A stretch of DNA of 55,508 bases, counting the filler, from Jimgerdemannia flammicorona (taxonomy: Eukaryota), in assembly GCA_003990765.1 (NCBI GenBank). It is 2 parts of 2 records of this genome, joined end to end, with 100 filler letters (N's around TTAATTAATTAA, not from the genome) between each part and the next. Parts side by side here need not be neighbours in the genome. Positions count along the whole stretch, not along the records: positions 27,814 to 55,508 come from RBNJ01000613.1; 1 more part is not named here. One strand, 5' to 3'. Positions 7,400 through 55,508 of this stretch are shown one piece after another. A program made the translations under genes and the position numbers. The notes under the pieces are model-generated. The model saw only the letters and a list, made by a program, of their open reading frames with translations, was not told where the DNA came from and made no database searches. The number at the start of each line of letters is the position of its first letter. The first letter of the stretch is position 1.

Positions 7400-8730
7400 T
7401 CTTCACCACCAATTATGGCAATTTACCATACAACTCATTATATTAACACAGCATAAATACAGGAAGTGCAACACCCATCCAGCAAAAACCCTATAGAATA
7501 TCCCATCACTTGAAAACATTTGAAAAAGAGCACATTCAAGAACTCTTAGACAATGGAGTCATCCAACCCTCTACTAGCCCCTGGGCTAGCCCTATACTTA
7601 TTGTACCAAAGAAAGGAGGATGGAGACTTTGTGTGGATTACAGGAAACTCAATTCAGTCACCAAAAAGGATGCCTATCCTCTGCCCAGAATCGATGACCT
7701 TTTGGACCAGTTATAAGATGCCAGATATTTCAGCAGTATAGACCTCTTTGCAGGATTCCATGAGATCCCCATGGACCCCAAAGACATTCAAAAGACAGCC
7801 TTCCTTGCTCTAGGAAAACTGTTTGTATACCTCTGAATGCCCTTTGAACTCTGCAATGCACCCCCCACCTTTCAGAGGATGATGAATTCAGTCTATGCCC
7901 CCTTGATCCATCACTGCCTAATTGTATACATGGATGATTCCAATATTTATTCAGCAAATTTCAAGGAACACCTGCACCACCTAGAGGAATTCTTCAAGCT
8001 CACCCACAAGAATCACTTGAGATTGAATGCAAAGAAATGCTACTTTGGAAAACAGAAACTTGAATTTCTGGGATTCATGGTTTCAAAAGAAGGAACTCAT
8101 GCAGACCCAAATAAAACTGAGAAGATCAACAATTGGCCAGTACCCAAGACTCCAAAAGAAATATTATCATTCCTGATGCTAGTATCCTACTACAGAAGGT
8201 TTATCAAAGATTTTGCCCAAATCGCTGCCCCAATCTGGATCCTTCTCAAGAAAGGAATACCATTCAAATGGACAGAATCACAGGAAAATGCCTTCAGAGA
8301 ACTCAAGAACTGCATGACTACAGCACTAATCCTTGTGCACCCCAATCTACAGAAGCCATTCATCTTTTATACAGATGCTTCCAAAGATGGCCTAGGAGCA
8401 GTTCTAGTCTAAGAAGGACCCAACCAATAGTACCATGTGATAGCTTATGTAAGCAGAGCTACCAATCAGCAGCAGATGAACTATGGTAGCACCAAACTGG
8501 AATGTCTTGCAGTCATATGGGCAGTTACTCTGTTCAAGCATTACCTCATTAGAAAAAGGTTCACCCTGATCACAGACCATGCAGCCCTCAAATAGCTATT
8601 CAACTACAAGGAATCTGCTGGAATCCTAGCCCACTGGATCCTTATCCTTCAGGATTACAAAATCACCATTATTCACAAAGCAGGGAAAGCCTATAACAAT
8701 GTTGATATACTTTCCTGCTAGCTCCAATGA
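7400..8730 (+). pseudogene. pol: E1 reverse transcriptase and RNase H
   Basis: [74 protein letters not shown]. Confidence 0.95.
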
Positions 8731-9794
8731 ATCAGAAGAAGGGTTTCCTGAGGAACCACACTCTGAAGGAAGCTCCTCAGACCATCAAGGAACAAGAAAA
8801 TCTCATCCAACAAGTATATCAGAAAGCCCACTAAGGACAGACATGCAAAGAAGATAAGATTCGAAAACAACATCAACATTGGCCCCACCTCAGAACCCAA
8901 GTCCAAGACATCATTCAGAAATGTAACATCTGCCAGAAGTATCAAGAAAAGAAGAACTATCAAGCCCCTCTGCAACCGATTCCCCCACCCACTCACATCT
9001 TTCAAAGATGGGGAGTAGATGTAATTGGACCTCTACCAGTTACACCAAGAAGAAACAAATACATTCTTGTATTTGTGGAACATCTGAGCAAGTGGCCTGA
9101 GGCATTTCCAATGGATATCACAGATGCCTTAACTATTGTAGGCCTCCTCCATAGACTCACACTCAGATATGGACCCCCAGAAGAACTCATCTCTGACTGA
9201 GGCATAGAATTCATCAACAACATAATCATAAGTTATGCCCGAATTCACAAGATCCACCTCAAAAGGACCACATCATACCACCCCCAGACCAATGGCATGA
9301 TAGAGAGAATGAACTAGACCATTAAGAAAGAACTTGCCCGAGTCAATCCTACTAATTGGGACCTCTGCTTACCTGAGATCCTATGGGAAATTCGGAACAC
9401 CCCTGCTGTATCCACCAAACAAAAGCCATTTGAAATGATGTTTGCCAAGAGAACCAGAACTGCTGACCATGAGAATCTCAGAGACCTCCTCAAGAAGGCA
9501 GAACAGTTATATAATCAAGCCCAAGGACAGATTATCAAAGCCCAGGAAAGACAAAAGAAGTACTATAACCAAAAACAGACAGATCAGGAGATCAAGATTG
9601 GAGATCAAGTCCTAGTTTAGAGAAGCATGATTGAGACAAACTTTGCTGCCAAACTAGAACTGAAAAGGAAAGGACCTTATCTTGTACATAACATCAGAGG
9701 AACCAGTATCTATTTAAGAAGCATAGATGGATGAACCCTGAGAACACCAGTACACATCAATCACCTCAAGCTATATTTCCCCTCTACACTATGA
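8727..9794 (+). pseudogene. int: E1 integrase, separate ORF with its own ATG
   Basis: ATG at 8727 overlaps the RH-frame TGA (ATGA). HHCC (AH...CNIC), DVIGPLP, YHPQTNGMIERMN, KGPYLV. Stop at 9792-9794. Confidence 0.88.
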
Positions 9795-10305
9795 GCCAAA
9801 GGATTGATCAGTGCCTCCAGACATTGGTCCTCAGCTCCTTCTAAGCTCTATCAGTCCCTCTACCCCAATTTAGCCAAGTCAATGGAAGTCCCCTTCAAAG
9901 GATCCAATTCACCAGAAAAATCTTACCTTGGCCAGATGCCTACTACAAGTCTACCAACTGCAGGTCTATTATACAATCAGTGAACAATTGCAGAACCTCC
10001 CAGCCCCAGAACAGACCTACATCAGGAACACCACAGGTCTGACCAGAAGAGATACTACTGCTGCAGACAGACTATATACTATTTATAAATGAAATGTCAC
10101 AGCCCTGACACAGGCACAATTCTCCCTGAATAATATTTAAGGAATGAACTCTGTTACCTATTTGAGTATCATCAACTCTGTCAAAATCCTATTCTCTAAA
10201 GAAGAAGAAGAGCCCATAGAATGGAGTGACCCCAGTACAGATAATGAAGATGATGGAATAGGTATAGATACAGAAGCAGCCTATGCTTATTGGAATGATG
10301 ACTAA
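9791..10305 (+). pseudogene. E1 accessory ORF3, unknown function; one frameshift and internal stops
   Basis: ATG overlaps the integrase TGA. Manual translation gives ...LQVYYTISEQL...TAADRLYTIYK*NVTAL... plus an acidic tail EEEEPIEWSDPSTDNEDDG, similar in pattern to ORF3 of E2 and E4. Confidence 0.6.
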
Positions 10306-10344: not shown

Positions 10345-11471
10345 TGTGATAAACCAAAACATACCACTCAAATTATATCTTAACTGGATGACACAAATAA
10401 TTAGGCAAGATAATATGAACATACAGCATAGTAACCAGCAACCATTGCTGTGGAAAACTGTATAAATAGTCAGACATACCAGAAAGGGTCTGTTTACCTG
10501 TACAGACTCTGTACACCTGCCATAAGTAGCAGATCTATAGTTAGCCACATAGTAACCAGATATGTAGCAACCAACTTGTATAAATTACCCCAGAGACAAG
10601 AGTGAATAAATCTCAGTCCGAAAAGTCTGAAATTCAAAGCAAAAGACAAGTCTGCCTACTATACTTCGAGAGGAACTTTACAACCACTGCTAGGAGATTG
10701 TGAGCTTATTTCCCCTTTCCACTCTGATCTACTTTCTGATATAAAGAACAAGTTTGTTTTTGGTTCACTTGTCAGATAAGCCTGAAGATTTGCCACCTAA
10801 GTTCAAGGAGAACTTTGCCACCTTTGAGTAACTCGCCACTTAAGGAATAAGCTGCCATTTTCAAGAAGCCCACTAATTCAGGAGAATCTGTATCATCTGC
10901 TGTTTACAAGTTATCCACATTCCCAGAAGACTCATGCCATCTGAGTAGTATTCTCAGTTGAAGTTGAACCTGTGATATCCAAGTTATTTATTATTTCCAG
11001 TGAACCTGTTGCAGAAGAATCCATGCCATACAATTCCCAGTGAGCCAAATTGAGTTATCCGCCAAATTATCAGAACATCCACATAAGGAATCTGCCATAC
11101 TACACAGAGATTGTCACACAGAGATCATCATGCTATACAGAGATCATTGTACCAAGACCATCACTCAGAAATCACACACTTTTGGAAACCACTCATGCTA
11201 TACACAAATTCTGCCATTCCCAGTTGACCCAAGAAGGAAACCTGTTCACACATATACAAATCACTGCTATGCCCAGAGAACCATCCCAATTAGGAAATTG
11301 ATATACAAATTGCTTCCAGATATCTAGTTTTGACTATTATACTGCTAAACACCAAGGACCTCAGAAATCTTAGGACATTTTATTGCTTTTTGACAAAGTA
11401 ACTAAGGGCTCAAGCCAAACTACATCAACCCCCAACCTTGTAATTTGCCTCCATTGAGCCAGTACATTATA
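10345..11471 (+). repeat. E1 3' LTR (1127 bp)
   Basis: TGTGATAAACC...CATTATA, preceded by the PPT and followed by TSD ATAT. Confidence 0.95.
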
Positions 11472-15187: not shown

Positions 15188-16388
15188 TTATATAGATTCA
15201 TAGTACTTCTTGAGTCTGTTCCTATATACTATGGTAGGCAGTATGGTCCCTGAGATTTTTCTAAGCCAGAAGGTAGTTCTTTTGATATCTTGCACATAGA
15301 AGGGTCCTTCCCATTTGAGCTCCAGTTTTCACAACTATGAGGCTTCTACCATATTTTGATACAGTAGAACCTTTTCTCCAATTCAGATGGGTTCTAGAGT
15401 CTTGTGATTCTTTTCTGCATTCTTTTTTGTCAGTACTTATGACTTGGTGATGTAATCTTCAGCCTTCTTCCTGATTTGGTGTAGTCTCCAGATTTCTGCA
15501 TCAACCTGTCTCTAAGTTAGGTCTAGATTTGTGACTGAGGTTCCATCAGAATCTTCTTCTTTGAAGAGCAGCTCTCTTGGAGTAAAGTGTGTGCTCTGTG
15601 ACCATATATCTCATAGGACAGAGAGGGTAGTTGGGAGATAGTTATCCCAATTCTCATATGTCTCTGAGATCTTCACTAGAATGTTCTTGAGGGTCTTGTT
15701 GGTTCTCTCTGTCTGTCCATTTTCTTGAGGGTGGTACATGGTGGTCTTGATGTGCTGGATCTTGTATTTCTGATACATTATCTCATAGAATCTATTGACA
15801 AATTCTGTGCTACAGTCTGTTGTGATTCACCTTGGTGTCTTATAGTGGTAGATGATTTCTCAGTACAGGAAGTCAGCTATAGAGAGGACATTGGCTTCTT
15901 GTAATGCTGCTGCCTCTATCTATTTAGTAAAGTGGTCTATAATAACTATAATATAGCAGTTTCCTGATAGTGTTACTGGTAGTGGCCCAATGATATCTAT
16001 TGTGATGTGGTGGAAGGGGATAGGCTCAATTCTTGATAACTCAGGTACTTGGTCTTGCTGATCTTATTTCTGTTTTTAGCACTTGTCACACCCTTTGACA
16101 AATTGGCACAGGTCTTCTTCCATCTTGGGCCACCATATGGTTCTTCTTGCCTTATTGTATGTATGTGTTGATTCCTCCTAAGTGTCCTTGCTTGTGTACT
16201 TCCTTCATTACTTGATACTTCTTGTATTCAGATATTACTAGCTTTCCTTCTTTTCTGAGTATAGTGTTGTCTAGTTCTAACTGTTTCCAAGTCCAGTTGA
16301 TGATGGTGATTGTCCAGAGTTTGAGGTGGTTGGACATCTTCTGCTGCTCAAGGTAGCTGATTAATCCATAGTATAGCTCCTTATTCAT
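15188..16388 (-). pseudogene. int: E2 integrase, separate ORF starting MNKELYY
   Basis: The RH frame ends ADTLSRIPQNTPIKTI*, then an ATG in another frame. VHKQGHLG, WWPKM, CDKC, DIIGPLP, YHPQENGQTE, WEGPF. Confidence 0.88.
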
Positions 16389-16389
16389 G

Positions 16390-17780
16390 TTAAATTGTCT
16401 TGATGGGAGTGTTTTGGGGTATCCTTGAGAGTGTATCAGCATTGGTGTTAGTTCTTCCTAAGCAGTACTTGATAGTACAGTCATACTCTTACAGTCTGTA
16501 GATCTATCTGGCATATATTCCTTTGGAGTTCAGGGTGTGGAATAGCCAGACAAGGGTGGAATAGTCTGTTTGAATGGTGAAGTATTTCCCAGCTAGGTAG
16601 TAGTGAAACTTGTCTACTGCCCAAACTACTGCTAAGTATTCAAGCTTGCATGACTTATAGTTCTGTTCTACTCTATGGGTACCTTGGCTTGCATAGGAGA
16701 TGACATATTCATATCCATCTTTCTTCTGAGCCAGGACTGCTCCAAGTCCTATAGCACTTATATCTGTTTGCAGGATAAATTCTAGGTTCCAATCTGGTCT
16801 TCTGAGGATAGGTGCTTGGGTCAATCTGGTCTTGAGTTCATTGAAGGTTTCTTGGTGCTCCTTGGTCCATTCAAATTTTGTTTCCTTCTTCAGTAGCTCA
16901 TAGATAGGTGCTGCAATGTTGGAGTATCCTTTGATAAATCTTCTGTAGTGGCTGGCCAGTTCAAGGAAGGCATGGACTTCTGTAGTTGTTCTGGATCTCA
17001 GATAGACTGCAACGGCCTTGATCTTTATGGGGTCTGTGTGGATTCCAGTCTGGTTGATGAGGTGTCCTAGGTAGGCAATTTTCTGAGCTGCAAACTTGCA
17101 TTTCTTGGGCTTGATATAGAGACCATGCTCCTTGAGCTTCTTGAGGGCTAGCTGTATGTGATTGACATGTTCCCATGTAGTGTTGCCAAAGATGATCATA
17201 TCATCAACATAGACAAAGAGCCATTTTCCAATTGCATTACTGAAGACTCTGTTCATCATTTGCTGAAAACTTGCTGGGGTATTGCACATTCCAAATGGTA
17301 TTCACAGATAGATATAGGTGGCATCAGGTGTGATGAAGGCTGATTTCTCACTGGCATCTTGAGTGAGACCAATCTGATGGAAGCCTGAGATCAGATCCAA
17401 GGTGGTGTAGTATTTGGCTTCGCTTCCAAGAGTTGTAAGGATTTCTTGAATATTTGGCAAGAGCTGCCTATCCTTCTTGGTGATGGCATTGAGCTTCCTG
17501 TAGTCAATATAGAGTCTTGGCATAAACTCTCTAGGCTTGTTTCCTTTCTTTGGGGTAAGGACAATGGGTGAGGTCCAGGGGCTGATAGCTTGCTTGATGA
17601 TTCTGGCTTCTTCCATTTCCTTGAGTTCTGCTTATAGCCATTCTCTGTAGGCAGGTGGTATGGGTCTGGCTTTCTGGTAGATGGGCTTGGTATCACTAGT
17701 GTCAACTTCATGATAGTACTTAGGTTCTTGATAGTGGATATCCCTAAAGTCTGTAGCAAGTACTCCTTCATTCTGGTACA
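16390..17780 (-). pseudogene. pol: E2 RT and RNase H
   Basis: SPWTSPIVL, IDYRKLN, LDLISGFHQI, YVDD, QTDISAIGLGAVL, LAVVWAV. Confidence 0.95.
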
Positions 17781-25240: not shown

Positions 25241-25275
25241 CTTTCATCTGGCATGCTTCAATCAATTCATATTTC

Positions 25276-26477
25276 TTTTTTTTTTTTTTTTTTTTTTTTT
25301 TACAGACTCAGAGTCCCGCGGATTTTTATTGGAAGAGAACCTAGACTATATAGGCCAAAATCCTTCACCATCCACTGAGTACTGCCTCTTCATTAAACCT
25401 AGACTAGTTATTATTCAGCAGCTCAATTATGCTAGGTGCAGTAGGGCTTATAGTAGCTTACATCTCATTCTATGCATTATACATTCTCTATCATCAGAGG
25501 GAACTCAGTCATATGCTAATGACTGAAAGTATATATCTGAAATCTCAATATATATATAAGGTTATATTTAAGCTAAATAGAATAGCCTCTGCTATTTTAA
25601 GTGAAAATGATAGACAAAGAAAAAACCTTCCTCAAGGTACAGAATAGTGGGTAGGACTTAGTTCTTATAAGCAAGGTGAGTAGAGGACTTATATATGAAG
25701 TAGGAGAAGATCTTCAATATTTCACTACTCAAGCTTATAGGTCTTGATCATATTGCTATAGTAGCTCTCAGTTTTAGTTAAGTGAAGCCAAGATGTCTGA
25801 TATAGTTAGCCTCAGGCCTTTCAGTCTCCCTCAATAACTAGGGCCTAACTTTATGAATTGCTGAAAGAAGCTGAGAGTGATACTTACTACATACCTAACC
25901 ACTCTATACTAATCAAAAGGCCTTACTGAAGCAGCACCTGCCTCAGCCCTGATGACTATCTCCAGTCTGATACCCTACTGGTCTACTGTTATCACCCTTT
26001 CTTTTATCTGTAATGATTATCTATTCTTCCATCTTGATATCACCTGAGAACAGTCACCTATATCAGAACCATACTTATTGAGAAGCTTGCCAAAGCCAGA
26101 GAGCTCCACTACAGATACCAAGGACCTGCAGGTAACCTATATTAAGCACTTGATGTCCAAGGTCAGCTGACTTCTTATATAATTCATGATATATCGAAAT
26201 GACACCTTATTGGTAATAGCAAAAGGAAGAAGGCACTGCACTAAAATGGATATATCTCAGATATAGCTGAAGGTACCAGAAACTGCAAAAAAGTAAAGAA
26301 GACACTGATCTGATACTGATAAAGGAGTAACTCATCACTATTACCTCCCTCCCACTGCTCTGCAATAGGTATAGCAAATTAACCTGAGATAGAGAGGGTA
26401 TTAGTTGTAGAAGTAGACTCAGAAGGTTGTCTACCAAACTATTGTAACTGGTAAGGTAGTGGAGAAAGAGGCCCATA
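25276..26477 (-). mobile_element. PolyA-tailed non-LTR retroelement copy (~1.2 kb) with 16-bp TSD
   Basis: PolyT 25276-25301 with a minus-strand AATAAA just inside. Perfect TSD AATCAATTCATATTTC at 25260-25275 and 26478-26493. Homologous to 27814-28998. Confidence 0.88.
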
Positions 26478-27503
26478 AATCAATTCATATTTCTGATAAC
26501 AATTTATCACTTGGTCAAAAAATATAAAATAAAATAAAAATGTAAAAAACTATCAAAATTGCAAAATAAAAAAACAGAATACAATATCTAATAAATCTAA
26601 ATAATGTTTAAAGTTAACAATGTTATCCTTTATTTGAAAATATCTAAATATTGTTAACAGTATATTTTTAATTTAAGAATAACATACAGCAAAGAAGTAT
26701 ATTTCCTTTTTGCAGCAATCTCTTCAAATCTGATGATAATCAATTCTTTGATCAAAAAAGATAAATAATAATTAAAAATAATCAGAATAATGAGCTTATG
26801 ATGAATTATTGCACAAGTTGAAACACTTATCATAGCACCAGCGGATATTGAACAAAAATGCCATAATCATGAAGCATAGAGTTAGACAGTCAGTTTGTAG
26901 CCATTTTGTTTCATGAAGGAAGGGTGTTTGTGGATGAGATGAAAATCCCAAATGAAATCCTTACGTCCATCTTCAATAAGTGAATGCCGATAATAATTAC
27001 TCAATGAAGAAGAAATGTTATGCGGAATACAACCTTCACGGGTGGGACATCATTATTACTGCGAAAATTCCTGATGGACGGAGTCATATAATCAGGAGAG
27101 TTTAATAATCTTGGATCGGAAGAGACAGCAGTCCAAAACATGTGGCTGAGAGACCAAATTACGCGCAGGAAAATTACAATGCCCTTCAGATGACACTGGA
27201 AATATTACTTGAGAAGCATCCACCTCTGTGTCATCGGCACCAAATAATAATAATAATAAATGCCCAAACCCACGCGCCCAAATGCAAACTATATCTGCTT
27301 ACCCAATTTTTTATTGAGGATGATATTGTTGGTCGAAAATTAATTCTGACCGGACAAATCGAATGCCATAAAATTGTGGGTGGCCCAGGGTCCAATGGCG
27401 CTATAATAATAATAATAAAATCATGAAATGTCGTTGGCTGCAAATTAATTACAATATGGATGGCCATTACGATACGTCCAGTTGCCCTTCTGTCCACACG
27501 CAC

Positions 27504-27538
<35 letters not shown>

Positions 27539-27713
27539 CGACAGTTGCATCGAAAGGGAATTATGTCTGCCTGTGAAAAAGGGATCGAATGCAGACTTAT
27601 TGTTGAATATCATTGGTCAACAATTAATTATGATCCTGACAAGTGGATGCCCAAAAATTGTGGGTGGCCATTTTCGTATATCAAGTTATTGCCTGTGTCA
27701 TCGGCACCAAAAA

Positions 27714-27813
27714 NNNNNNNNNNNNNNNNNNNNNNNNNNNNNNNNNNNNNNNNNNNNTTAATTAATTAANNNNNNNNNNNNNNNNNNNNNNNNNNNNNNN
27801 NNNNNNNNNNNNN
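27714..27813. other. Artificial contig linker (N44-TTAATTAATTAA-N44)
   Basis: Exactly 100 nt, with a palindromic six-frame-stop 12-mer centred between N runs. Confidence 0.95.
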
Positions 27814-28998
27814 TTTTTTACAGACTTAGAGTCCTATGGATTTTTATTGGAAGAGAACCTAAACTATATAGGCTAAAACCCTCTTCCACTACTTATCAAG
27901 CACTGCTCTCTTATTAATCTAAGCTAGCTATTATCTAGTAGCTTGACTATGCCAGATACAGTAGAGCCTATAGTGGTCCATATCTCATTCTGTATACCAT
28001 GCTCTCTCTACTATCAGAGAGAACTCAGCCATATGCTAATAACCAAAAACATATGCCTAAAACTTCAATATATGTATAAGACCATACTTGAGCTAAATAG
28101 AATAGCTTCTACTACTCCAAGGAGAATGACAGGCAAAGAAAAAAAACCCTTATCAAAGTATATTATAGTAGATAAGACCTAGTTCTCTCAGAAGAGATGA
28201 GTAAAGAACTTTCACATAAGGTGGGAGGAAACCCCCAATATCCTACTACTTAAGCCTATAGGTCTTGATTATATTACTGTATCAGCTCCCAGTTCTAGTT
28301 AAGTATACTAAGATATCTGAAATAGGTAGCCTTGAACTCCTCAACCCTCTTTAACAACTGAGACCTAACTCTATATATTGCCAAAAGAAGCTGAGAGTGA
28401 TACCTACTATCTAATCACTCTATACCAATCAAAAGGCTCTACTAAAGTAGTACCTACCCTAGTCCTGATAATTACCCCCAGCCTAACACTCTACTGGTTT
28501 ATCATTATTGTCCTTTTTCTTATCTATAATAGCCATCTCTCCTCCCATTCCAACAATACCCAAAAAACAGTCATATATATCAGAACTGCACTTACTGAGA
28601 AGCTTGCCAAAATCAGAGGACCCCACTACAGGTACTAAGAACCTGCAGGTAACCTATACTGAGTACTTGATATCTAAGATCAGCTAACTCCCTATATAAC
28701 CCATGATACTCTAAGATAATATCTTATTGGTGATAGTAAAAGGAAGAAAGCATCACACCAAAATGAGTATATATACCTCAGATATAGCTGAAGGTATCAG
28801 AATCCATGAAATAATAGAGAAGATACTAATCTGATACTAATAAAAGGACAACTCATCACTATTGCCCTCCTTTTACTATACTCCTTCAGATACAGCAAAC
28901 CAACTCAAGATAAAGGAAATAATAATAGAGGAAAGAGGACTCAGAAGATTACCTATCAAATCTTATAACTAGTAAGGTAGCAGAGAAAGGAGCTCATA
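27814..28998 (-). mobile_element. Second copy of the 1.2 kb polyA-tailed non-LTR element
   Basis: Colinear with 25296-26477, starting TTTTTTACAGACT, with the same far boundary (GAGAAAG..GC.CATA). Confidence 0.88.
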
Positions 28999-30029: not shown

Positions 30030-33000
30030 TTTAACTAGGGTAGAGTAGTGACTGGTTCCAGATCTTGAGGTGTGACACATGAAAGACTGAGTGTACTCTC
30101 ATGATTTCAGGTAGCTTAAGACAGTAGGAGGATACAGAGACTTGTTCAGTGATCTTGAAAGGTCCAATATACTTGGGTTGGAACTTGTTTGAAGGGTAAT
30201 TGACTTGAGATTGTACATATCTTGAGATTCTCAGTAGATAGTAGGACTTGATCTTCAACAGTGTAAGTGACATCATGGTATTTCTTGTTAGTATACTTGG
30301 CTTAATTCTGTTGAGCCTTCTGAAGGTTCATAGTAGCAATCTTGAGTAGTTCATCCATCTTATCTGTAAGGTTCTTGGTTGTTAGGACTTATATTTGACT
30401 AGTTTTCTTGAAAGAAAATAGACTTGCAGGGGTCTCGGGATCTTAACCATAGAGTAACCAGAAAGGGAAAAGATCAGTAGATGATTGGACAGCATTGTTG
30501 TATGCAAACTCTGTATAAGTCAGGTAGATGTCTCAATTATCTTGCTCATAAAAAACATAGTTTCTAAGCATTTGTTCTAGAGTTCTATTCATGTGCTTGG
30601 TTTGTCCATCAGTTTGTAGATAAAAGGTAGTAGACATAGTCAATTGGGTTCTCAGAGTCTTGAAGAGGGTTTGCCAGAAGTGGTTGGTGAACTTGGGGTT
30701 GTGATTGCTAACAATTACTCATAGTAGACCATAGTAATAGAAGATGGACTTAAAAAAGATTCTTGCAATCTCAGGTGCAGTAGTATTGGTAGTGGTTGGT
30801 TTAGCAACCATAGTCTTGGTCAGGCAGTCAATGAATACAACAATAGCATCAGCATCAGATTGAGTTCATAGTAGTTGAGTTATAAAGTCTGTGGTGACTT
30901 GCTTGAACTTCTTAGTAGGAATTGGCAGTGGTTGTAGCAAACTGGCAAGCACTTGATTGGTAGACTTGTTGTACTAACATAGATCACAGCTGGCAATATA
31001 GTTCTTGATTTTCTTAACCATGTTTGGCCAATAGTAGTGGTGTTGGATGTTCTTAACAGTCTTCTCAATTCCCAGATAACCGACAAGAGGGGAGTTATGG
31101 TGTTCTTGCAAAATCTTATAGTGTAGGTTCATGTTTTCAGGTAGGTAGACTTGGTCTTAATGATAGATTAGATTGTTCTCAACAGTATATGTATCCTTGA
31201 GTTCATTCAAGAAAACTCTAGTAGCAACTGTATCTTCTTTGTAAGCTTGCCTGATTTGGTCTAGGAATTCTGATACCAAGGTAATTTGCATGATTGTGGT
31301 GAGGTCTGGGCACCTTGATAAAGCATCTGGTACTATAAATATCTTACCAGGCTTATAGATGATTGTTGGATTGAAGGTTTGAAGCTTAAGGCTCTACTTA
31401 GCTTGTAGACATAACAGAGTAGGTTGGGTATTGATGTACTTGAGAGATTGATGATCAGTAATGATATCAAACTCAACATCTTCTAGATAGTATTGCCAGT
31501 GATCTAGTGCATGTATTATTGCTAGTAGTTTCTTCTCATGAGTAGCTAGTTTTTGTTCAGCTGAGGCTAGCTTGTGGAACTCAAAAGCAATAGAGTGATG
31601 TCCTTTGCCATCATCTTGTAACTAGTGCTCCTAACGAGTCAATTTAATCCGGATTAGATTCGGATTGATTCGGATTGAATCCCATCCGAATCAACTCGGA
31701 TGGGATTCGAATCAACCATTGTTTTGATTTCCAAATTAGATAATTAAATGTTTACATCAATAACTCAATGAATAATCATCCAAATTTGATGATCTTGGTG
31801 TCATTTGAAAGCCCTTAATAAGGCCTATCTAATGATACCAAGAACATTGAAATCAGATCATGCGTTGCTGAGTTATGAAGGGAACCGTCTGAATCGCTGA
31901 TTTTGGAAATTCTTCGATTTGCCAATTTTGGAAATTTCATCAAATAGAACGTTTTCTTTAATATCTTGGCAACGCGCAATCCGATTTTAATGTTCTTGAT
32001 ATCATTAGAAAGGCCTTATTAAGGGCTTTCAAATGACACCAAGATCATCAAATTTGGATAATTATTCATCGAGTTATTGATGTAAACATTTAATTGTCCA
32101 ATTTGGAAATCAAAACAATGGTTGATTCGAATCCATCCAGATGGGATTCGAATCCAATCCGAGTTGATCCAGATGGGATTCGAATCCATCCGAATCCCAT
32201 CCGGATTGACTCGTTTGGAGCACTACTTGTAACAGGACTACTCTAATGGCAAAATTTGATATATCAGTGGTGACTATGAATTTTTGGCCTTGATCTGCAT
32301 TATGCAGGACTGGGGTATGGGTTAGGTAGTTCTTGAGTTCTTGAAAGGCTTATTGACAGAAGAGATCCCAGGTGTAAGATACATAGAGGTCTGAGTATGA
32401 GGTCTTCCTCATGAGATTAGTCAGTGGCTCAGCAATACCAGAGAAGTTTCTGACAAAGTGGTGATAATAGTCAGCTAGACCAAGGAAGGATTGGAGTTCA
32501 ATGAAATGGACTATTTTTCAATTGCTTCTATCTTGTGTGGGTCTACTTGAATTCCTTGTGCAGAGACAATGTGGCCAAGGTATTCAACTTGTTCTTTGAA
32601 GAATTTATACTTCTTGAGCTTGTCATAAAGCTTGTGTTTTTACAGGATCTCCAGGACTATTCGAATGTATTTGAGGTATTCTTCTTTAGTTATACTAAAG
32701 ATCAGGATGTTGTCAAGATATATCAATAGGAAAATAAATAGTTAGTCCTTAAATATCTTGTTCATCAGAGTCTGGAATATAGTGGGTGCATTGGTGTGAC
32801 CAAATACTAAGACCAGGAATTCATAGAGTCCAAAGGGGGTCATGAATGCAGTCTTGAGAATGTCTTCTGGCTTGATTTGAATCTGGTGGTATTCTGACAT
32901 GAGATCTAACTTAGTGAAGTACTTGGCATTCTTAAGAGTATTAAAGATTTGATTAATCAAGAATAATGGATAATAGTTCTTGATAGTGAGTTTGTTGAGT

Positions 33001-36969: not shown

Positions 36970-39114
36970 TATACTGTTGAGAACAATCTGATCTATTATT
37001 AAGACCAAGTCTATCTATCTAAAAACATAAATCTATATTATAAGATTTTGCAAGAACATCATGACTCCCCTCTTGCAATCACTTGGGAATCAAGAAGACT
37101 GTCAAGAACATCCAATACCACTACTATTGGCCAAGTATGGTCAAAGAAATCAAGAACTGTATTACTAGCTATAATCTATACTAGTACAATAAGTCTACCA
37201 ACTAAGCACTAGCCAGTTTGCTATAACCACTGCCAATTCCCACTAAGAAATTCAAGCAAGTTACTATGGACTTTGTAACTCAACTACCATGAACCCAATC
37301 TAGTACTAATGCTATTATCATATTTGTTGACTACCTGACTAAGACTATAGTTACTGAACCAACTACTACCAATGCTACTATACCTGAGATTGCAAGAATC
37401 TTCTTCAAGTCTATCTTCTGTCACTATGGCCTACTATGAGTAATTGTTAGTAATTATGATCCCAAGTTCACCAGTCACTTCTGGCAAACTCTCTTTAAGA
37501 CCCTGAGAATCCAATTGGCTATGTTTACTGCCTTCTATCCACAAACTGATGGACAGATCAAGTGCATAAACAGAACTCTAGAACAAATGCTTAGAAACTA
37601 TGTTTTTTATAAGTAAGATAATTGAGATCATTATCTGACTTATGTAGAGTTTATATACAACAATTCTGTCCAATTATCTACTAGTCTTTCTCCTTTCTGG
37701 TTACTCCACAGTCAAGATCCCAAGACCTCTACAAGTCTATTCTCTTTTAAGAAAAGCAGTCAAATATAAGTCTCTACTGCTAAGAGCCTTACAGATAAAA
37801 TGAACAAACTACTCAAGATTGCTACCATAAATCTTCAGAAGGCTCAACAGTATCAAGCCAAGTATGTTGACAAGAAATGCCATGATATCACTTACACTAT
37901 TAGAGATTAAGTCTTACTGTCTACCAAAAATCTCAAGATACAATCTCAAGTCAACTGCCCTTCAAACAAGTTTCAACCTAAGTATATTGGACCTTTTAAG
38001 ATTACTGAATAAGTCTCTGTATCCTCCTATCACCTCAAGCTACCTGAAACCATAAGAGTATACCCAGTCTTTCATATATTATATCTCAAGACCTGGAACC
38101 AGTCACTGCTTTATTCTGGTTGAATTCTTAAGCCATCTATCTCTATGATTATTGAAGACCATATTGAGTATAAAGCTGAGAAATTTTTTAACAAATGAAT
38201 CCACTATTACTGTCTTGAATACCTAGTCAAGTGGATGGACTATCCTAAATATGATACTATCTGGAAACTGCTGGTCAACCTTAAGAACTCTCAATATCTA
38301 GTTCAAAACTTCAAGGCAAAATGCATTGCCCAATCCCTATAGTGACTTTCTTGGATTATTGATGATCTATGGCAATAATCAGTGCCTTATATATTAGAAG
38401 TTTACTTTGGGATCCAGGAACTAGTAGAAAATTTAATGAATAAGAAGTCTATTGAAATAAAGCTACTAGCTGAGTTCAAACCTCTCTCAGTTGATTAGTT
38501 TGATAATAGGCACTCTGTTTTACATATATGAGAATGGCCAATTCTCATCAATATATCAATATAAGTTTGAGAAATTTTGGTTAAGTATATCTAGTCTTGT
38601 ATTATCTAAGAACTCAACAAGGATGTTAGTTCTTAAGAAGGGAGGAATATAACAATTTCACAGTCATATTTAGTTTTAGTATATTTTCATATCTTTTAGT
38701 TAGTCTTTTCTTATTATTTCTTAAATATTCTACTATGTTTTGCTATCTTCTACTTGCTTAGAAACCTTCTTTTAGTGCTCAGACATCACTAGAATACTCT
38801 TGTCTTTCCTTAGTAGTACTAAGTATCTTGTCTTAGCTAGTCATAGAACCTTTTGAAATATTGTAGAACCATATTAGTCAGCTTTACTAAAAACCTATTT
38901 CTTGGCATTTTTCTTTCTTTCCAAGATCACTCTAGATCTTTCTTTCAGATTATATATAAATATCTTTATTCTCTATCTAAATAAAGCTCAGAATATTTTC
39001 TTTCAAAAATCCTTCAAGAATACTTAAACCTTTAAGTATCTCTTTGAGCTACTTTAGGCCAACTAGAACTTTCAGATTTAGCTGCTTCCTCTTAAAGAAA
39101 CTAGAACCATTATA
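36970..39114 (+). mobile_element. 5'-truncated E3-family copy (integrase, chromodomain, PPT, 3' LTR 38648-39114)
   Basis: Reverse complement of 29047-~31190. YLVKWMDYP chromodomain and PPT AAGAAGGGAGGAA. Confidence 0.92.
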
Positions 39115-42732: not shown

Positions 42733-43347
42733 ACCATCATTATAAACCAAAAAGTAATATAAATGTAGTTTCTATAGTAATATATAGTGTGATGAGTAAC
42801 AGGATTATACTGCTGAATTTATAAATTAACTATTGTAACATAGCGGACACTTACTCTTGAAAGTATGTCAGACTTCTATATCTTGAAAACTTGACTGTTC
42901 TGACTCTCGCAGAGTCTCTTGAAGTAGCAGGGGAGGGTGGGTGAGTTTGAAGTGTATCTGCCCACAGGCTTACTAGTTTCTTTACTATCTCTTTGCTTTT
43001 GAACTATTTCGATCTGAGGTTTATTCACTCAAAGATACTGGGTTATTTATACAAGTTTGCTAGCTATGAGAGGGTGGCTAAGTAATAAATGAGTCATTTG
43101 GACTTTGTCGAAACATTTGGATGATGTCTAAATGCTATACTAAATCGGGGTATTTGATTTGGATAATGTCTAAAATTTAGACAATATCTAAGAAATTAGA
43201 CAATGTCAAAATTGAGGACTGCTAACTATAATGCTATACTACTTTGGGAATGGGTGTGATCAAGTGTCTATTCCCTATTTCCTTCTTCCGAATCTGGCTG
43301 TACCATCACAACTTCCTCCTGAATGGATGGTCTCATCTCTGAGGCAT

Positions 43348-43809
43348 CTATTCAAACTCCCAGGCTTCAATGGTCTGTATGGTCTTGTACTGTGCGATTT
43401 GCTGCATAACTGTTTCCCAATGATGTCTTCTCACTTTCTCGAAGTCAGTAGGGGTTACTCCTCTCAGGTGGTCTATTGCTGCTTCATCTTCTCGGAATAG
43501 CTTGTGGATCCTTTTGGCAATAGTGATCTGTGAGTGGGAGAGTTGACACTCGGCAATCTAGTCCTCCTTAGTCTTTGCTGGATCCTGATTGAGCACCTGT
43601 CCAAGCTTGAAGTACTCTTGAAATTCTGCCCGATATTGATAGGCTCTGAAGTGTGAAATCCGAGAGAGATGAGTCTGCACAATACTCTGAATATCCTCAT
43701 AGTATAGCTCTATGGTCAGAGGCTCAGTGGTGTGCTATTGTCTTTTGATGGCTCTTTGGGCAGCACTAGTGATCTTGAGTACCATCATGGTACTTTTGTT
43801 ACTGGCCAT
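43348..43809 (-). pseudogene. E4 accessory ORF3 (~153 aa, two internal TAG stops)
   Basis: Manual translation MASNKSTMMVLKITSAAQRAIKRQ*...EFQEYFKLGQVL...IAKRIHKLFREDEAAIDHLRGVTPTDFEKVRRHHWETV. The ATG overlaps the end of integrase. Confidence 0.8.
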
Positions 43810-44992
43810 GATATTTCTTGAGTCGGTTTCAGTGAATGGTGGTGGGGATTATTGTGTCTGAGGGTTTTCGTAGCCAAAAGGTGGTTCCTTTTATATCTTG
43901 CACAAGGTAGGGTCCTTCCCACTTGGGCTCCAGTTTTCGTGACCATGAAGCTTCAACCATATTCTAATACATCAAGACTTTGTCTCCTATCTTGATGATC
44001 TCCAAGGGTTTGTGAGTCTTTTCCGCATTCCTCCATTATAGTGTCTGCACCTTTGTTATGTAATCCTCAGCCTTCTTCCTGATTTGGTATAGTCTCCATA
44101 TTTCCATGTCTACATGTTTCCATACAGCATCTCCATTGGATAATAGGGTTCCTTGAGAACATTTTTCTCCGAACAGCATTTCTCGAGGGGTAAAGTAGGT
44201 GCTTTGTGATCAGATATCCCGGAGAGCAGATAATGCTATTGGCAGATAGTGATCCCAGTTCTCATAGTTATCACAGATCTTGGCGATAACATTCTTAAGG
44301 GTTTTGTTGGTCCTTTCTACTTGTCCATTTCCTTGAGGGTGATAGGCTGTGGTCCGAATGTGCTGGATCTTGTACTTTTTGTAGAGAACCTCAAAGAGCT
44401 GGTTCACGAATTCTGTTCCTCTATCTGTAGTTACTTGTGTTGGGGTCTTGAACCAGCAGATGATTTCCTTGTAGAAGAAATCGGCGATTGACTATGCATT
44501 GGCTTCCTTGAGGGGTCCTGCTTCTATCCACTTCGTAAAAAGGTCTACAATGACAATGATGTATTGGTTACCAGTCAGGGTCAAGGGTAGAGGGCCGATT
44601 ACATCCATTGCAATGTGGGCGAATGGTACTGGTTCTATGTGTGCTGATCCTGGGGCTTGATTCCATTGGTCTTGTTTCTGTTTTTGGTATTTGTCACAGG
44701 TCTTGACAAATTGTCTGATATCTTCCTCCATCCCTGGCCACCATATTGTTCTCCTTGCCTTGTCATATATATTTGTTCCTCCTAGATGGCTAAGTTCGTG
44801 TACTGATTTCATTGCTTGCTCCTTCTTGTATTCTGGTATGACTAGTAGTTTTCCTTTCTTCAGTGTTTCTCCATCGGTTTCGAATTGTTTCCATGTCCTG
44901 TTGATAATCGTTTGTGTCCATTCTTCCAGATGTTGGGGCATCTTTTGCTGTCCCAGGTATGTGATGATTCCATAGTAGAGCTCCTTATTCAT
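43799..44992 (-). pseudogene. int: E4 integrase, separate ORF starting MNKELYY
   Basis: VHELSHLG, WWPGM, DVIGPLP, VDLFTKW, YHPQGNGQVER, WEGPY. Confidence 0.92.
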
Positions 44993-47900
44993 GATTGATT
45001 TGTAGTTCAAGGTGTCTGTGAGAGAGCATCTGCATTGGAATTTGTTCTTCCAGGGCAGTGCACGATGGTTACATCATAGGCTTGTAACTTCATTATCCAT
45101 CTGGCATAGATTCCCTTGGGTTGTCCAGTTGTCAGTAGCCAGGTGAGAGCTGAGTGGTCCATCTGGATGGTGAAGTGTCTTTCGGCCAGATAGTAGTGGA
45201 ACTTTTCCACAGCCCAGATGACTGCAAGGCATTCTAACTTGTAGGACTCATATTCTTTTTCAGTCCCTTGGGTTCCGCGGCTAAGATATGCAATGACATA
45301 CTCTTTTTTGTCTTCTTTTTGAGCCAGGACTGCTCCTAGTCCTTGTGCACTTGCATCCATCTGAAGGATAAATTCTTGGGTCCAATTGGGTCATCTGAGG
45401 ATGGGTGCCTGAGTTAGTCTGACCTTGAGTTCATCAAATGCTTTTTGTTGTCTGCCAGTCCACTGGAACTTGGTATCCTTCTTGTTGAGTTCATAGATTG
45501 GGCCTGCAATGTTGGAGAATCCTCTAATGAATCTGTGATAGTAGGAGGCGAGTCCCATGAAGGCTTGGGCTTCTGTGATGGTAGTGGGCCTTGGGTATAC
45601 TGCTACCACTTGTATCTTGAGGGGGTCCATGTGTGTTCCATCTCGATTGATGATATGGCCAAGATAGGAGATCTCGATTTCCGCAAACTTGCACTTCTTG
45701 GGTTTGATATAAAGGCCATGTTGTCTTAGTCTCTCCATTATCTGCTATATGTGCTGCAGATATTCCTCGGCCATCTTGCTGTAGATGATTACATCATCGA
45801 CATAGACCATCATCCATCTTCCCATGTCATAGCAGAAGATTTTATTCATCATTCGCTGAAAGCTTGCTGGTGCATTGCACATTCCGAATAGCATTTGTAA
45901 GTAGATGTAGGTTCTGTCTGGGGTGATGAAGGCTGACTTTTCGCTTGCCATTTCTGTGAGTCCGATTTGGTGGAATCCTGAGTATAAGTCCAAGGTGCTG
46001 TAGTATTGTGCTTCATCTCCTAGTGTTATAAGGATATCACTGATGAGCGGCAGTGGTTGGCAATCCTTCTTGGTGACTGCATTGAGCTTTCTGTAGTCGA
46101 TACAGAGCCTTGGGGCAAATTCTCCAGGTTTGCTTTCTTTTTTTGGGGCTAGTACAACTGGTGAAGACCAGGGGCTGCTGGCTTCTTTGATGATACCAAC
46201 TTCTTCCATCTGCTTGATTTCTTCTCTGAGCCATTCTCGGTAGGCTGGTGGGACAGGTCTTGCCTTCTGGTAAATTGGTTCAGTGTCTCCGGTATCTACC
46301 TCATGATAGTAGTGTGGGGTCTTTCTCTTGATATCCTTGAAATCCGTGGCAAGGACATCCTCGAATTTGTGGAGTATTTTCTTGAGTTCCTCCTTGAGTG
46401 GGAATTCATCTCCAATGGTGTAACTGTGCTTGCTTGTGTTTTCCTCCTTCTTGTGCTCAAGTTCAGTGATCTTGGTGCTGGCGAATACTCCTCTTTCTGT
46501 GGATCCGAATCCTTTCTTTCCTCTTTTCGTTTCCTCCAGATTCTTGACTTCTATGATCCTTGGCTGTATGATTGGGAAGATCAACATCTGTACTAATCAG
46601 TCCTTCTTCTTGACTGGGAATGGAATTGTAGGATTGTAGTTCCTAGCAATGAGTAGAATTTCTCCAGTATAGTCTGAATCAATGACTCCTCCTTCAATTG
46701 TGATTTCACTTCTAGCCAGGCTGCTTCTTGTCTTGAGAATCCTGACATGATCCTTTGGGATGGTCATCTCCAGTCCAGTTGCGAGTAGGGTAGTTGTCTG
46801 GGGTTCCAGTACAGTTTCTTCTACTGTAGCGATATCCATTCCGGCTGCATTTTCTGACTTGTATTCTGGCAAGACTGCATCAGGGTGGATTTTTTGAATC
46901 TTGACCTTGATTTCTTCTTCGTCATCGCTGTCCTCCAGGAGAGCTGGTGGTTCATCGTCTTCCTCCTTCTCTTCTTCCCTGATCTGTTTTTCGAGAGCTT
47001 TCTGGCTTTTTTCCTGGTAGATCTTCCTGGTTCCAATGGTGCACTAGTAGCAATTGTTGACATGCTCCATACAATACATCTTGATTCCATAAGGACAGAC
47101 TCCTTGTGGGGCATAGCCTTCTACAATCTTCTTGCACCATTCTTCTTCACTCATCCATCCGACTTTCTTCTTCTTTGGGGTAGTCACCATATAAGCTTCC
47201 TCTTGCTCGCTCTCTTCTTCCTCTATGTTGGGCAGGACTCCTTTGTTGACGTTGATGGAAATTCGTATCTTCTGTCCCTGGTAGGTGATCTGCATCTTCT
47301 GGGCATTGAGATCGATTACTGCCTTGGCTTTGTGAAACCATTGATTACCAATGAGGATGTCATAGTTGGTGGCGTTAGTTACAATTACATCTACTGGGAT
47401 GGTTGCTCCTCCAATCTTGATGGGAACATCTCGGATCTTTCCTAGAGGTGTGGCTCTTATGCCATTGGCTGTGACAAATACTAGCTTGGTTGCTTCTTCC
47501 ACATCCCAATCTAGGCGGTCTGCTGTCTTCTTACTGAGGAGACATCCTCCTGCTCCTGTGTCAATGATGGCTTCAAAGACTCGATCCTCAATTTGGTATG
47601 TTGCATAGGCAGAGGTTTTGCGATTGTCCTCACTTTCTTCTCCTGAGTCCTCTTGAACATTGTTGGCCTTGGTTATCTTCCATCCTTGTTCCTTGGTTGT
47701 TTCAGCAAGTCCAAATCTCATTTGCTGTCTGAATGTTGGGATTTCTGCAAGCTGACCAAAGGTTGCATTGACCTTTTGTTGACTGAGGTCCTTAAAGATA
47801 TCATACTTGAAGGTCTTGGTCTTGTGAAGCTTCTTTTCTTTTTCTCCTTCACTGGCTGGGGTGGTTCCTCAGATGATATCTTGAACTGCTTACTCCAGCT

Positions 47901-49068
47901 CAATATCTTGGTCCATCTCTTCGGCTTGACTTTCTGTAGCAGTTTCCATCTGCTTTTCCACTGGGTTCTTCTTGGGTCTTCCTGGTGGTCTCTTGTAGGG
48001 TTCTTTGCGAACATCCTTCTTGGTGGTCTGAGCAGGATAGGCCTCCCATTCTTCTTCATCAGAATCTCCGATCTCCTCGAAGGTAATTATATTGGCCTGC
48101 TCCTTGTTTCGTGTGGCATTGCTTGGTTGAGCCTTGCACTTGGTTTCGCTCATACATTTATAGGAGTAGTGGCCTTCTTCTCCGCAAGTATAGCAGATGC
48201 CTTTCTTCTTATCTGAGGTGGTGGCGAACTTCTGGACAGGGCAGCAGTCTCTTCCTCGAATCTCCTTTACCACATCTCCCAGGTGGGCAGTCATTTCAGC
48301 AAACCTTTTGGTGAGTTCCTCCATAGGGTCACTGTTCTTTTGCTGCTCTATAGCTTTTGGCTGAGGTGTGTTTCGATTGATCATTGTGGTGGGGATCACA
48401 CTGGTTGCCTTGGGTGCCTCAATTTTGACTCCTGTAACTCTTTCCATTGTATGGTCTTGTGGGTGTCTGGCTGTCCAGTATTGCTGAGCATAGGTGACCC
48501 TCTGTGGCAGATCCAGAATCATTGGTGATGAGCGGATGGCCATGGCTATTTCTGGATAGACTCCTTTCATGAAGATTGCTTCGGCTACTTGATCTCGGGT
48601 AGCAGCAGCATAATCTGCAAGGATTATCTGATATCGAATTCTGGTATAGAATGTGTTTGGATCCTCACTTATTCCTTGGCACGTTGTGTTGAGCTGATCC
48701 TTCAGGGCTTGCTTGATCTTGTCTGTGTAATATGTGTTTCAGAGCCAGGTCTTCTGTGCTGTCAGTACAGCATCGGTATCATTTCCTATATGGGTTACGG
48801 CTGTGAATGCTGCTCTGGCAGGACCTCGTAGGCTGAAGGGCATGAGGGCTACTTGCTGTGCTGCTGTCAGAGTCCTTACGGCAGCATACTGCTCGAAATC
48901 ATCAATGAAGGTGATGATTGATTCATCTGAGGTATATCCATGGAATACTGGCAGTCTCATATCCATCTTGTCTGGGTATTGGGGCTCGGTTTGTATGGTT
49001 GTTCGGGTAGTGGTGGTTGTTCGTTGTTCAGTTTGAAAGTGAGGGATTCGTTTTGAATCACTAGCCAA
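44989..49068 (-). pseudogene. gag-pol: E4 single-frame gag-PR-dUTPase-RT-RNase H polyprotein (point stops only)
   Basis: ORF pieces 48739-49068, 47890-48570, 47044-47721, 46597-46872, 45745-46587, 45391-45738 and 45007-45360 are all in one frame. CYTCGEEGHYSYKC, IDTGAGG, AAGMDI/TRSSL/GGVIDSDYTGEI/RGKKGFGST, YVDD, DASAQGLGAVL. Confidence 0.95.
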
Positions 49069-49561
49069 TGGGCACCAAGTTGTAACGTAGCGGATGCTTA
49101 CTCTTGAAAGTACATCGGACTTCTATATCTTGAAAACTTGACTGTTCTGACTCTCACAGAGTCTCTTGAAGTGGCAGGGGAGGGTGGGTGAGTTCGAAGT
49201 GTATCTGCCCACAGGCTTACTAGTTCCTTTGCTATCTCTTTGCTTTTGAACTATTTCGATCTGAGGTTTATTCACTTGAAGATACTGGGTTATTTATACA
49301 AGTTTGCTAGCTATGAGAGGGTGGCTAAGTAATAAATGAGTCATTTGGACTTTGTCGAAACATTTGGACGATGTCTAAATGCTATACTAAATCGGGGTAT
49401 TCGATTTGGATAATGTCTAAAATTTAGACAATGTCTAAGAAATTAGATAATGTCAAAATTGAGGACTGCTAACTATAATGCTATACTACTTTGGGAATGG
49501 GTGCGATCAAGTGTCTATTCCCTATTTCCTTCTTCCGAATCTGGCTGTACTGTCACACTAT

Positions 49562-55347: not shown

Positions 55348-55381
<34 letters not shown>

Positions 55382-55508
55382 GACTCTATGTTCTGCATAT
55401 TTTTATTAGATGGTAACTTAGACTATATTGACCATAACCCTCCCTCACCATCCATCAAGAACTTCTCGACCATTATCTTAGGCTATTTATGTTTTTCTTT
55501 TTTTTCAT
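55348..55508 (-). mobile_element. 3' end of a third, more diverged polyA-tailed non-LTR insert, truncated by the window edge
   Basis: Long polyT followed by GACTC...TTTTTATT.GA...AAC.TAGACTATAT...CACCATCCA, similar to 25300-25380. Confidence 0.7.

Follow-up and report, generated by a model that had tools for sequence, protein, structure and literature searches.

E4, a long terminal repeat (LTR) retrotransposon of Jimgerdemannia flammicorona, is a dead copy of a Ty3/gypsy-type lineage with two cistrons, in which Gag through RNase H form one open reading frame (ORF1) and the integrase (IN) is encoded separately behind its own AUG, on or beside the ORF1 stop. We analysed it within a stretch of 55,508 nucleotides (nt), filler included, from assembly GCA_003990765.1, here called the window, along which all positions are counted. 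Judged from sequence, the chances appear evenly balanced that IN of this lineage is made by termination-reinitiation at that junction. The broader proposal, that a deep and widespread Ty3/gypsy clade makes its IN in this way after a Gag-RNase H ORF of 4-5 kb and would be the first such LTR retroelement, is put forward tentatively.

Results

A stop/start overlap at the family junction of E4

As had been claimed in a first-pass annotation of the window, the region of E4 from Gag through protease (PR), dUTPase and reverse transcriptase (RT) to RNase H runs for ~4 kb in a single frame, from 49122 to 45010, with its Pfam domains in order (Table 1). This frame of 1371 codons is interrupted by seven internal stops of mixed type (TGA, TAA and TAG) and by no frameshift. 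IN follows RNase H, giving the order Gag-PR-RT-RNase H-IN by which Ty3/gypsy elements are recognized (the ORF1 order is the same in two related metagenome loci, L002 and L003), and the coding region is flanked, as in Metaviridae, by LTRs, here of 478 nt and 95.8% identity. The IN frame opens at an ATG of its own at 44992 (MNKELYY...), which in this copy as read lies in phase -1 relative to ORF1, also as annotated. A second TGA in the ORF1 frame (44991-44989) overlaps that ATG (44992-44990).

The annotation went on to propose an ATGA-type stop/start coupling at this point, provided that the nearer TGA at 45007 was a decayed CGA. When contigs of four public DNA runs (X1-X4; three soil metagenomes and "organism A") were compared with E4 over 44300-45800, one contig per run spanned the junction, each with only 3-8 other differences from E4. 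Position 45009 is G on the plus strand in every covering contig (depth 35/35 in X1, 6.48/6.48 in X2, 9.38/9.38 in X3 and 6.3/6.3 in X4), so these near-identical copies read CGA, not TGA, on the coding strand, and the guess was right. Every spanning contig also carries 11 extra bases behind 45001 (depth 35/157 in X1, 6.48/20.9 in X2, 9.38/9.38 in X3 and 6.3/6.3 in X4). The -1 phase and the in-frame ATGA of E4 are therefore private decay: both are present in this copy, but they are owed to an 11-nt deletion and the change of CGA to TGA. Following the pol frame by a hand count of codons from 45009 with the 11 bases restored, we found that it gains 11 codons and ends at the TAA of ATGAATAA (44987-44985), 5 nt past the A of the IN ATG, in place of the TGA met in the shifted phase of E4. 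The family junction of E4 is ATGAATAA, with IN in the +1 phase; a stop/start overlap of a geometry other than ATGA is the family state.

Comparison with E2, a second element of the window that is 60-65% identical to E4 (tblastn of E4 proteins against the window), agrees with the deletion. The register from E2 to E4 changes by 11 nt across the junction, and E2 is in the same phase as the restored E4 family (CAT GAA TAA) and carries one more TAA two codons before it. The TAA-C-ATG annotated in E2, followed by the same MNKELYY start as in E4, is indeed found, with the start at 16388. P0002, a relative of 83% identity, has 31 residues ahead of the IN Met, matching another frame of E4 on the upstream side of the deletion, and a second, E2-like contig end in X2, judged from 30 letters, appears to fit the +1 phase. 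The likeness of the junctions exceeds chance, as the exact 15-mer CATGAATAAGGAGCT occurs in the window only at the E2 and E4 junctions; an exact-pattern scan with the 23-mer of the E2/E4 junction gave 0 matches in genome_contigs and 0 in viral_contigs.

All four E4 stops in the compared interval (44494, 45009, 45393 and 45747) read G in the other copies and are therefore private C-to-T changes of the coding strand. Nearly all differences between E4 and related copies over this interval are transitions (for example 87/89 listed places in X1), which together with the four private stops forms a deamination-like pattern of decay.

The same tblastn search placed RT-RNase H of E1 in frame +1 and its IN in frame +3, and RNase H and IN of E3 in one shared frame. 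Both overlaps that had been described in E1 are present, ATGA at 8727-8730 between RNase H and IN and again at 9791-9794 between IN and a third ORF; the pol frame has an additional TAG two codons upstream of the first. The single intact relative found for E1 IN, P0145 (354 aa; 81% identity, 99% coverage), has the same start Met as the one at 8727. The third ORF (MSQRIDQ..., 9791-10300 on the plus strand), whose ATG overlaps the IN stop, is decayed. E3 has the fused RNase H-IN that the annotation had ascribed to it.

Separate integrase in related proteins and loci

That the IN cistron is separate from Pol as a trait of the family, and not through a set of independent indels, is supported by two features of intact relatives: they keep a long Gag-RNase H ORF together with a full IN ORF in another phase or behind a stop, and they share a conserved IN AUG at or close to the stop of ORF1. 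E4 IN, searched against proteins of 228-728 aa, had 258 matches at E ≤1e-10. Of the best 120 among these, 96 have the homologous Met (M-N/D-x-E/D-L-Y-Y...) as their very first residue, and another 5 reach it after 7-31 additional residues; the start lies downstream of it in 18, and 1 fits none of these groups. A search of 1.84 billion representatives was made with no length limit, and its best 150 were inspected. Thirteen align from residue 1-6 to query residue 1-6, and all matches of at least 39% identity are stand-alone proteins or short fragments. None of them is fused, which upholds the annotation in treating the separate IN as a property of the element: RNase H and IN are not continuous in these close relatives. 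The fused proteins among the 150 (~600 to 4400 aa) have ≤36% identity and mostly match from query residue ~44-50; three longer proteins (P0254, P0274 and P0333) match from query residue 5-9. A Met at the predicted position was found in 0/20 fused relatives, the position being extrapolated where the alignment starts late.

We could judge the layout of 45 out of 80 metagenome loci, 22 being split and 23 fused; the other 35 had an IN start beyond the contig end, were too decayed or, as in a family typified by L021, lacked an upstream RNase H. The fused loci comprise 20 without interruption and 3 (L047, L054 and L058) in which a single nonsense codon interrupts conserved sequence. In E1, E2, the E4 family and the 22 split loci, IN occupies another frame or follows a stop and has a conserved AUG, whereas canonical Ty3/gypsy IN is part of the Pol polyprotein and is released by the protease. 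In the split loci IN is in phase -1 in 12, in phase +1 in 1 and in frame in 9, and the ORF1 stop lies ≤27 nt from the IN ATG in 17/22. Both ORFs are intact in many of them: L002 has an open ORF1 of 4731 nt joined by ATGA to an IN of 418 aa, ORF1 of L003 measures 4953 nt, and L037 and L051 combine ORF1s of 3267 and 3390 nt with INs of 403 and 392 aa. ORF1 of L002 and L003 encodes zf-CCHC, PR, dUTPase, RT and RNase H, as in E4. After its TGA the pol frame of L005 is open again for 30 codons, up to a TAA overlapping the ATG, and the TGA is therefore probably a nonsense mutation ahead of a TAATG junction.

IN is in the -1 phase in all five loci with long spacers (L005, L015, L016, L019 and L020), although three of these spacers (L016, L019 and L020) are A+T-rich and non-coding in appearance. 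Seven loci of the L021-like IN family (L021, L031, L034, L039, L042, L055 and L080) start at the homologous Met (MDDEVF...) and have no RNase H match in up to 1470 nt upstream; their element architecture may differ. L014 and L015 carry identical repeats of 123 nt and 139 nt at both contig ends, probably reflecting LTR-mediated circular assembly of one element.

In a tree of IN sequences, one branch (Shimodaira-Hasegawa-like approximate likelihood ratio test, SH-aLRT, 84) sets apart all 18 split rows together with 12 unjudged and no fused ones. When the N-terminal columns are left out two changes are needed, and the very long fused branch L057 falls among these rows, unsupported. A single split clade was not rejected by the approximately unbiased (AU) test (p 0.363).

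It is scarcely credible, then, that the RNase H/IN breaks are independent decay indels in dead copies of a canonically fused family. All four elements of the window are decayed, and the phase and ATGA of E4 did indeed come from a deletion and a nonsense change, just as this explanation would have it. Yet less decayed copies keep the stop/start overlap ATGAATAA, in many loci a multi-kb ORF1 and an IN ORF of ~400-460 aa are both intact, and both the shared start Met and the lack of fused proteins among the closer matches speak against it.

Translation of the integrase cistron

On our analysis, termination-reinitiation is the best-fitting mechanism for these junctions. The full-length RNA would most likely be the mRNA of both cistrons. 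Ribosomes completing the 4-5-kb ORF1 would terminate at the junction and a fraction of 40S subunits would restart at the adjacent IN AUG, yielding a free, Met-initiated IN in lower amount than Gag-RT, which would join the cDNA or the particle in trans, not be cut from Pol. The proximity of stop and start that characterizes coupled reinitiation is seen both at the 17 split loci noted above and at the family junction ATGAATAA. Also in favour of this mechanism are the varying phase of the split loci, the closure of the IN frame ahead of the AUG in five of them and, in the one subclade with IN mostly in frame, the stop context and a covarying upstream hairpin, all described below.

Junctions of these kinds have precedents. 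In the portion cited here, PMC2699510 describes UAAUG in the fungal CHV1 (4.4%), influenza B segment 7 and SART1, AUGA in feline calicivirus (FCV; 5%) and AUGucUGA in rabbit haemorrhagic disease virus (RHDV; ~20%), and short spacers too; PMC10275272, likewise in part, describes systems with a termination upstream ribosomal binding site (TURBS) in which stop and start lie within ~20 nt and efficiency falls beyond ~30 nt. The family junction ATGAATAA is of the RHDV type (AUG, 2 nt, stop), and the ATGA and TAATG of relatives of E4 are of the FCV and CHV1 types, the start being AUG. Two fungal viruses, the hypovirus CHV1 and the victorivirus HvV190S, are among the coupled reinitiation examples in these portions of PMC2699510 and PMC10275272, so fungi are among the known hosts. 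The same portions hold a retrotransposon, SART1 of Bombyx, in which a UAAUG stop/start overlap translates the second cistron from one RNA; unlike the elements here, it is of the non-LTR class, and its split falls between an RNA-binding ORF1 and an enzyme ORF2, not between RNase H and integrase. From the RNA viruses with coupled reinitiation the E4-type elements differ in being LTR retroelements with an ORF1 of 4-5 kb, in showing no enrichment of a TURBS-like motif and in being known here from sequence alone.

Several points weigh against termination-reinitiation. Five of the 22 split loci have spacers of 44-374 nt, beyond what known coupled systems tolerate well. To our knowledge, restart after an ORF of 4-5 kb would exceed the upstream ORF lengths of known cases, which in RNA viruses with coupled reinitiation are ~2 kb. 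A downstream gene that is read from spliced RNA can likewise overlap the ORF before it, as in retroviral pol/env, and stop/start proximity alone is therefore no proof of coupling. TGGGA, the calicivirus motif (TURBS motif 1), was not enriched, being found in 1/17 junctions against ~2.3 expected (background 0.134 per 120 nt). At the junctions of E2, L002 and L004 folding did not surpass that of shuffles (z +0.76, +0.88 and +1.48, respectively), and a motif scan together with folding found no cis element common to the junctions examined. Finally, the counts of IN starts among proteins rely on gene callers, for which an ORF opens at ATG, and so depend partly on the claim itself; the DNA loci are independent of this.

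A serious rival, though we consider it unlikely, is that IN is read from a separate subgenomic RNA, spliced as for retroviral env or started at an internal promoter, with the overlap reflecting genome compaction. Retroviral env, which overlaps the end of pol and stands outside the polyprotein, is read from a spliced subgenomic RNA; it resembles the IN cistron in its position and, unlike IN, is not a replication enzyme. The long spacers at five loci would suit such an RNA, those of the L016/L019/L020 subclade fitting an internal start better than coupling, as would the finding of no structure or rRNA-complementary motif common to all junctions. It is harder to reconcile with the ≤27 nt between stop and AUG at 17/22 junctions, kept across deeply diverged subclades, and with L003 and L004, in which no AG dinucleotide is seen by eye in the ~12 nt before the AUG. 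A splice fusing RNase H to IN was ruled out for L014 and L002, in which only 2 and 10 codons, respectively, lie between the ...LSR motif and the stop.

Production of a Pol-IN fusion by recoding, either frameshifting or stop-codon readthrough, with the AUG incidental, is very unlikely. Its best case is one subclade of 10 loci, named MDP from its ATGGAYCC start, in which IN is in frame behind a single stop in 9/10 loci with spacers of 9-24 nt in multiples of three; in addition, a correctly phased canonical slippery heptamer precedes the stop of L003 by 25 nt. However, the phase differs between lineages (-1, +1 and 0) where one fixed phase would be expected, and a single recoding signal is excluded by this variation among the 22 loci. 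Such a heptamer lies in the permissive window of only 1/8 -1-phase loci (L003), the Ty1/Ty3 +1 motif in 0/17 loci, and the permissive window is ≤10 nt in L014 and L015. Frameshift fusion is impossible in L005, L016, L019, L020 and L048, because the stretch from the ORF1 stop to the AUG is not open in the IN frame. The in-frame stops of the MDP subclade are TAA with a purine next, an efficient termination context, in 9/10 loci, the remaining stop being TAG. The start Met, conserved in split forms, is absent from 20/20 fused forms. In the MDP loci other than L048 (L029, L030, L037, L038, L045, L051, L052, L056 and L078), IN follows in frame after a single TAA or TAG, and some readthrough fusion could also arise in them.

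Entry of ribosomes at the IN AUG from the RNase H coding end, as at an internal ribosome entry site (IRES) and independent of ORF1 termination, is quite improbable. What speaks for it is RNA structure. The in-frame MDP subclade has a conserved hairpin 35-45 nt upstream of the ORF1 stop, in which the codons for ...I-x-H... pair with those for D-A-L-S, with compensatory changes at synonymous sites. Paired cells amount to 87% in eight sequences (L030, L037, L038, L048, L051, L052, L056 and L078), compared with 28-38% in slid controls, and the covariation score was reached by 0/500 shuffles, although the hairpin was named by eye from the folds of these same sequences and then counted, which favours it. 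RNAalifold gave a weak consensus for the eight-sequence junction alignment (-3.12 kcal/mol). On average, junction segments fold better than control segments (mean z -1.03 versus +0.43, 10 each), a difference driven by L014 and the in-frame subclade. On the other side, the hairpin is not shared by E2, L002 or L004, and for internal entry the stop would have no need to overlap the AUG. In the MDP subclade, GGGCCA ~125 nt upstream also pairs at long range (6 bp) with the AUGGACCC start region, in 7/7 sequences and without covariation.

Other features of the window

At least four decayed LTR elements, E1, E2, E3 and E4, lie in the window (Table 1). An integrase-like stretch at 37077-37997 on the plus strand, 23% identical to E4 IN, falls outside the four named LTR pairs. 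Direct repeats at 25272-28915, ~2.5 kb apart, start with a long T run; one copy holds an N run at 27790-27813, and a third, partial copy is found at the end of the window (55349-55441).

Table 1. Elements of the window, split-locus junction types and the conserved hairpin
Feature	Position or loci	Strand	Description
E4 ORF1 frame	45010-49122	-	Gag-PR-dUTPase-RT-RNase H; first Met at 48966
E4 zf-CCHC (Gag)	48151-48198	-	Pfam
E4 protease	47281-47640	-	Pfam, aspartyl protease
E4 dUTPase	46498-46875	-	Pfam
E4 RT	45649-46128	-	Pfam RVT_1
E4 RNase H	45076-45462	-	Pfam
E4 in-frame TGA ending ORF1 as read	45007-45009	-	CGA in related copies
Site of 11-nt deletion private to E4	45001-45002	-	Shifts IN from the family +1 phase to -1
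E4 junction octamer ATGAATAA	44985-44992	-	IN start codon 44992-44990
E4 integrase cistron	43799-44992	-	397 codons and stop; 5 internal nonsense codons
E4 Integrase_H2C2	44672-44839	-	Pfam
E4 rve core	44336-44626	-	Pfam
E4 5' LTR	49080-49557	-	478-nt direct repeat, 95.8% identical to 42833-43310
E4 3' LTR	42833-43310	-	Direct repeat, partner of 49080-49557
E1 integrase cistron	8727-9794	+	ATG at 8727 overlaps pol-frame TGA (ATGA); own TGA overlaps ORF3 ATG, 9791-9794
E1 LTR pair	2114-3407 / 10347-11402
E2 junction	16381-16392	-	TAA 16392-16390, C, ATG 16388-16386, then TAA of ATGAATAA 16383-16381 in pol phase
E2 LTR pair	13291 / 20520
E3 RNase H end and integrase	30446-31618	-	Canonical fused layout; single frame, one nonsense codon
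E3 LTR pair	29061 / 35312
ATGA junction	L002, L014, L006
TAATG junction	L017
TGA-2 nt-ATG junction	L007
Overlaps of 10 and 11 nt	L003, L004
Junction of one subclade	10 loci		ORF1 ends few codons past ...ADALSR(D/N)P...; stop, 9-24 nt, then ATGGAYCC
Long-spacer junctions	L015, L005, L016, L019, L020		44, 92, 95, 281 and 374 nt, respectively
Hairpin pairing in alignment A2	columns 36-43 with 74-81, and 51-58 with 62-71

Discussion

The E4-type elements share with canonical Ty3/gypsy elements their LTRs, a CCHC Gag, the order PR-RT-RNase H-IN and an IN with H2C2 and rve domains. According to the portion of PMC2864245 cited here, fungal Gypsy elements carry IN within Pol, whether they have a single fused Gag-Pol ORF or separate gag and pol, and PosPlaTy3-5 has a dUTPase between PR and RT, as the E4-type elements do. 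In contrast to the canonical elements of that portion, Gag through RNase H of the E4-type elements is a single ORF and IN forms a separate cistron, its AUG being conserved. A full-text literature search, whose coverage stopped short of subscription journals, Repbase and the structure table of PMC2864245, found no paper on a Ty3/gypsy IN as a separate cistron. For the window itself, the exact overlap of E4 is a decay product, and the underlying trait is real. Elements with a split IN will be scored as broken by annotation pipelines built for a fused Pol.

The textbook IN of retroviruses and LTR retrotransposons is released from Pol by cleavage, and its packaging is thereby ensured. A large clade with IN as a second cistron raises the questions of how IN is translated after a 4-5-kb ORF in a eukaryote and how an unlinked IN reaches the reverse-transcribed DNA. 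If IN is made by termination-reinitiation, the dosage step that usually lies between Gag and Pol would move to the RNase H/IN boundary, and IN would be a free protein that must find the cDNA or the particle in trans. The set of junctions, with ATGA, TAATG, ATGnnTAA and short spacers, offers a natural series for the study of reinitiation in fungi.

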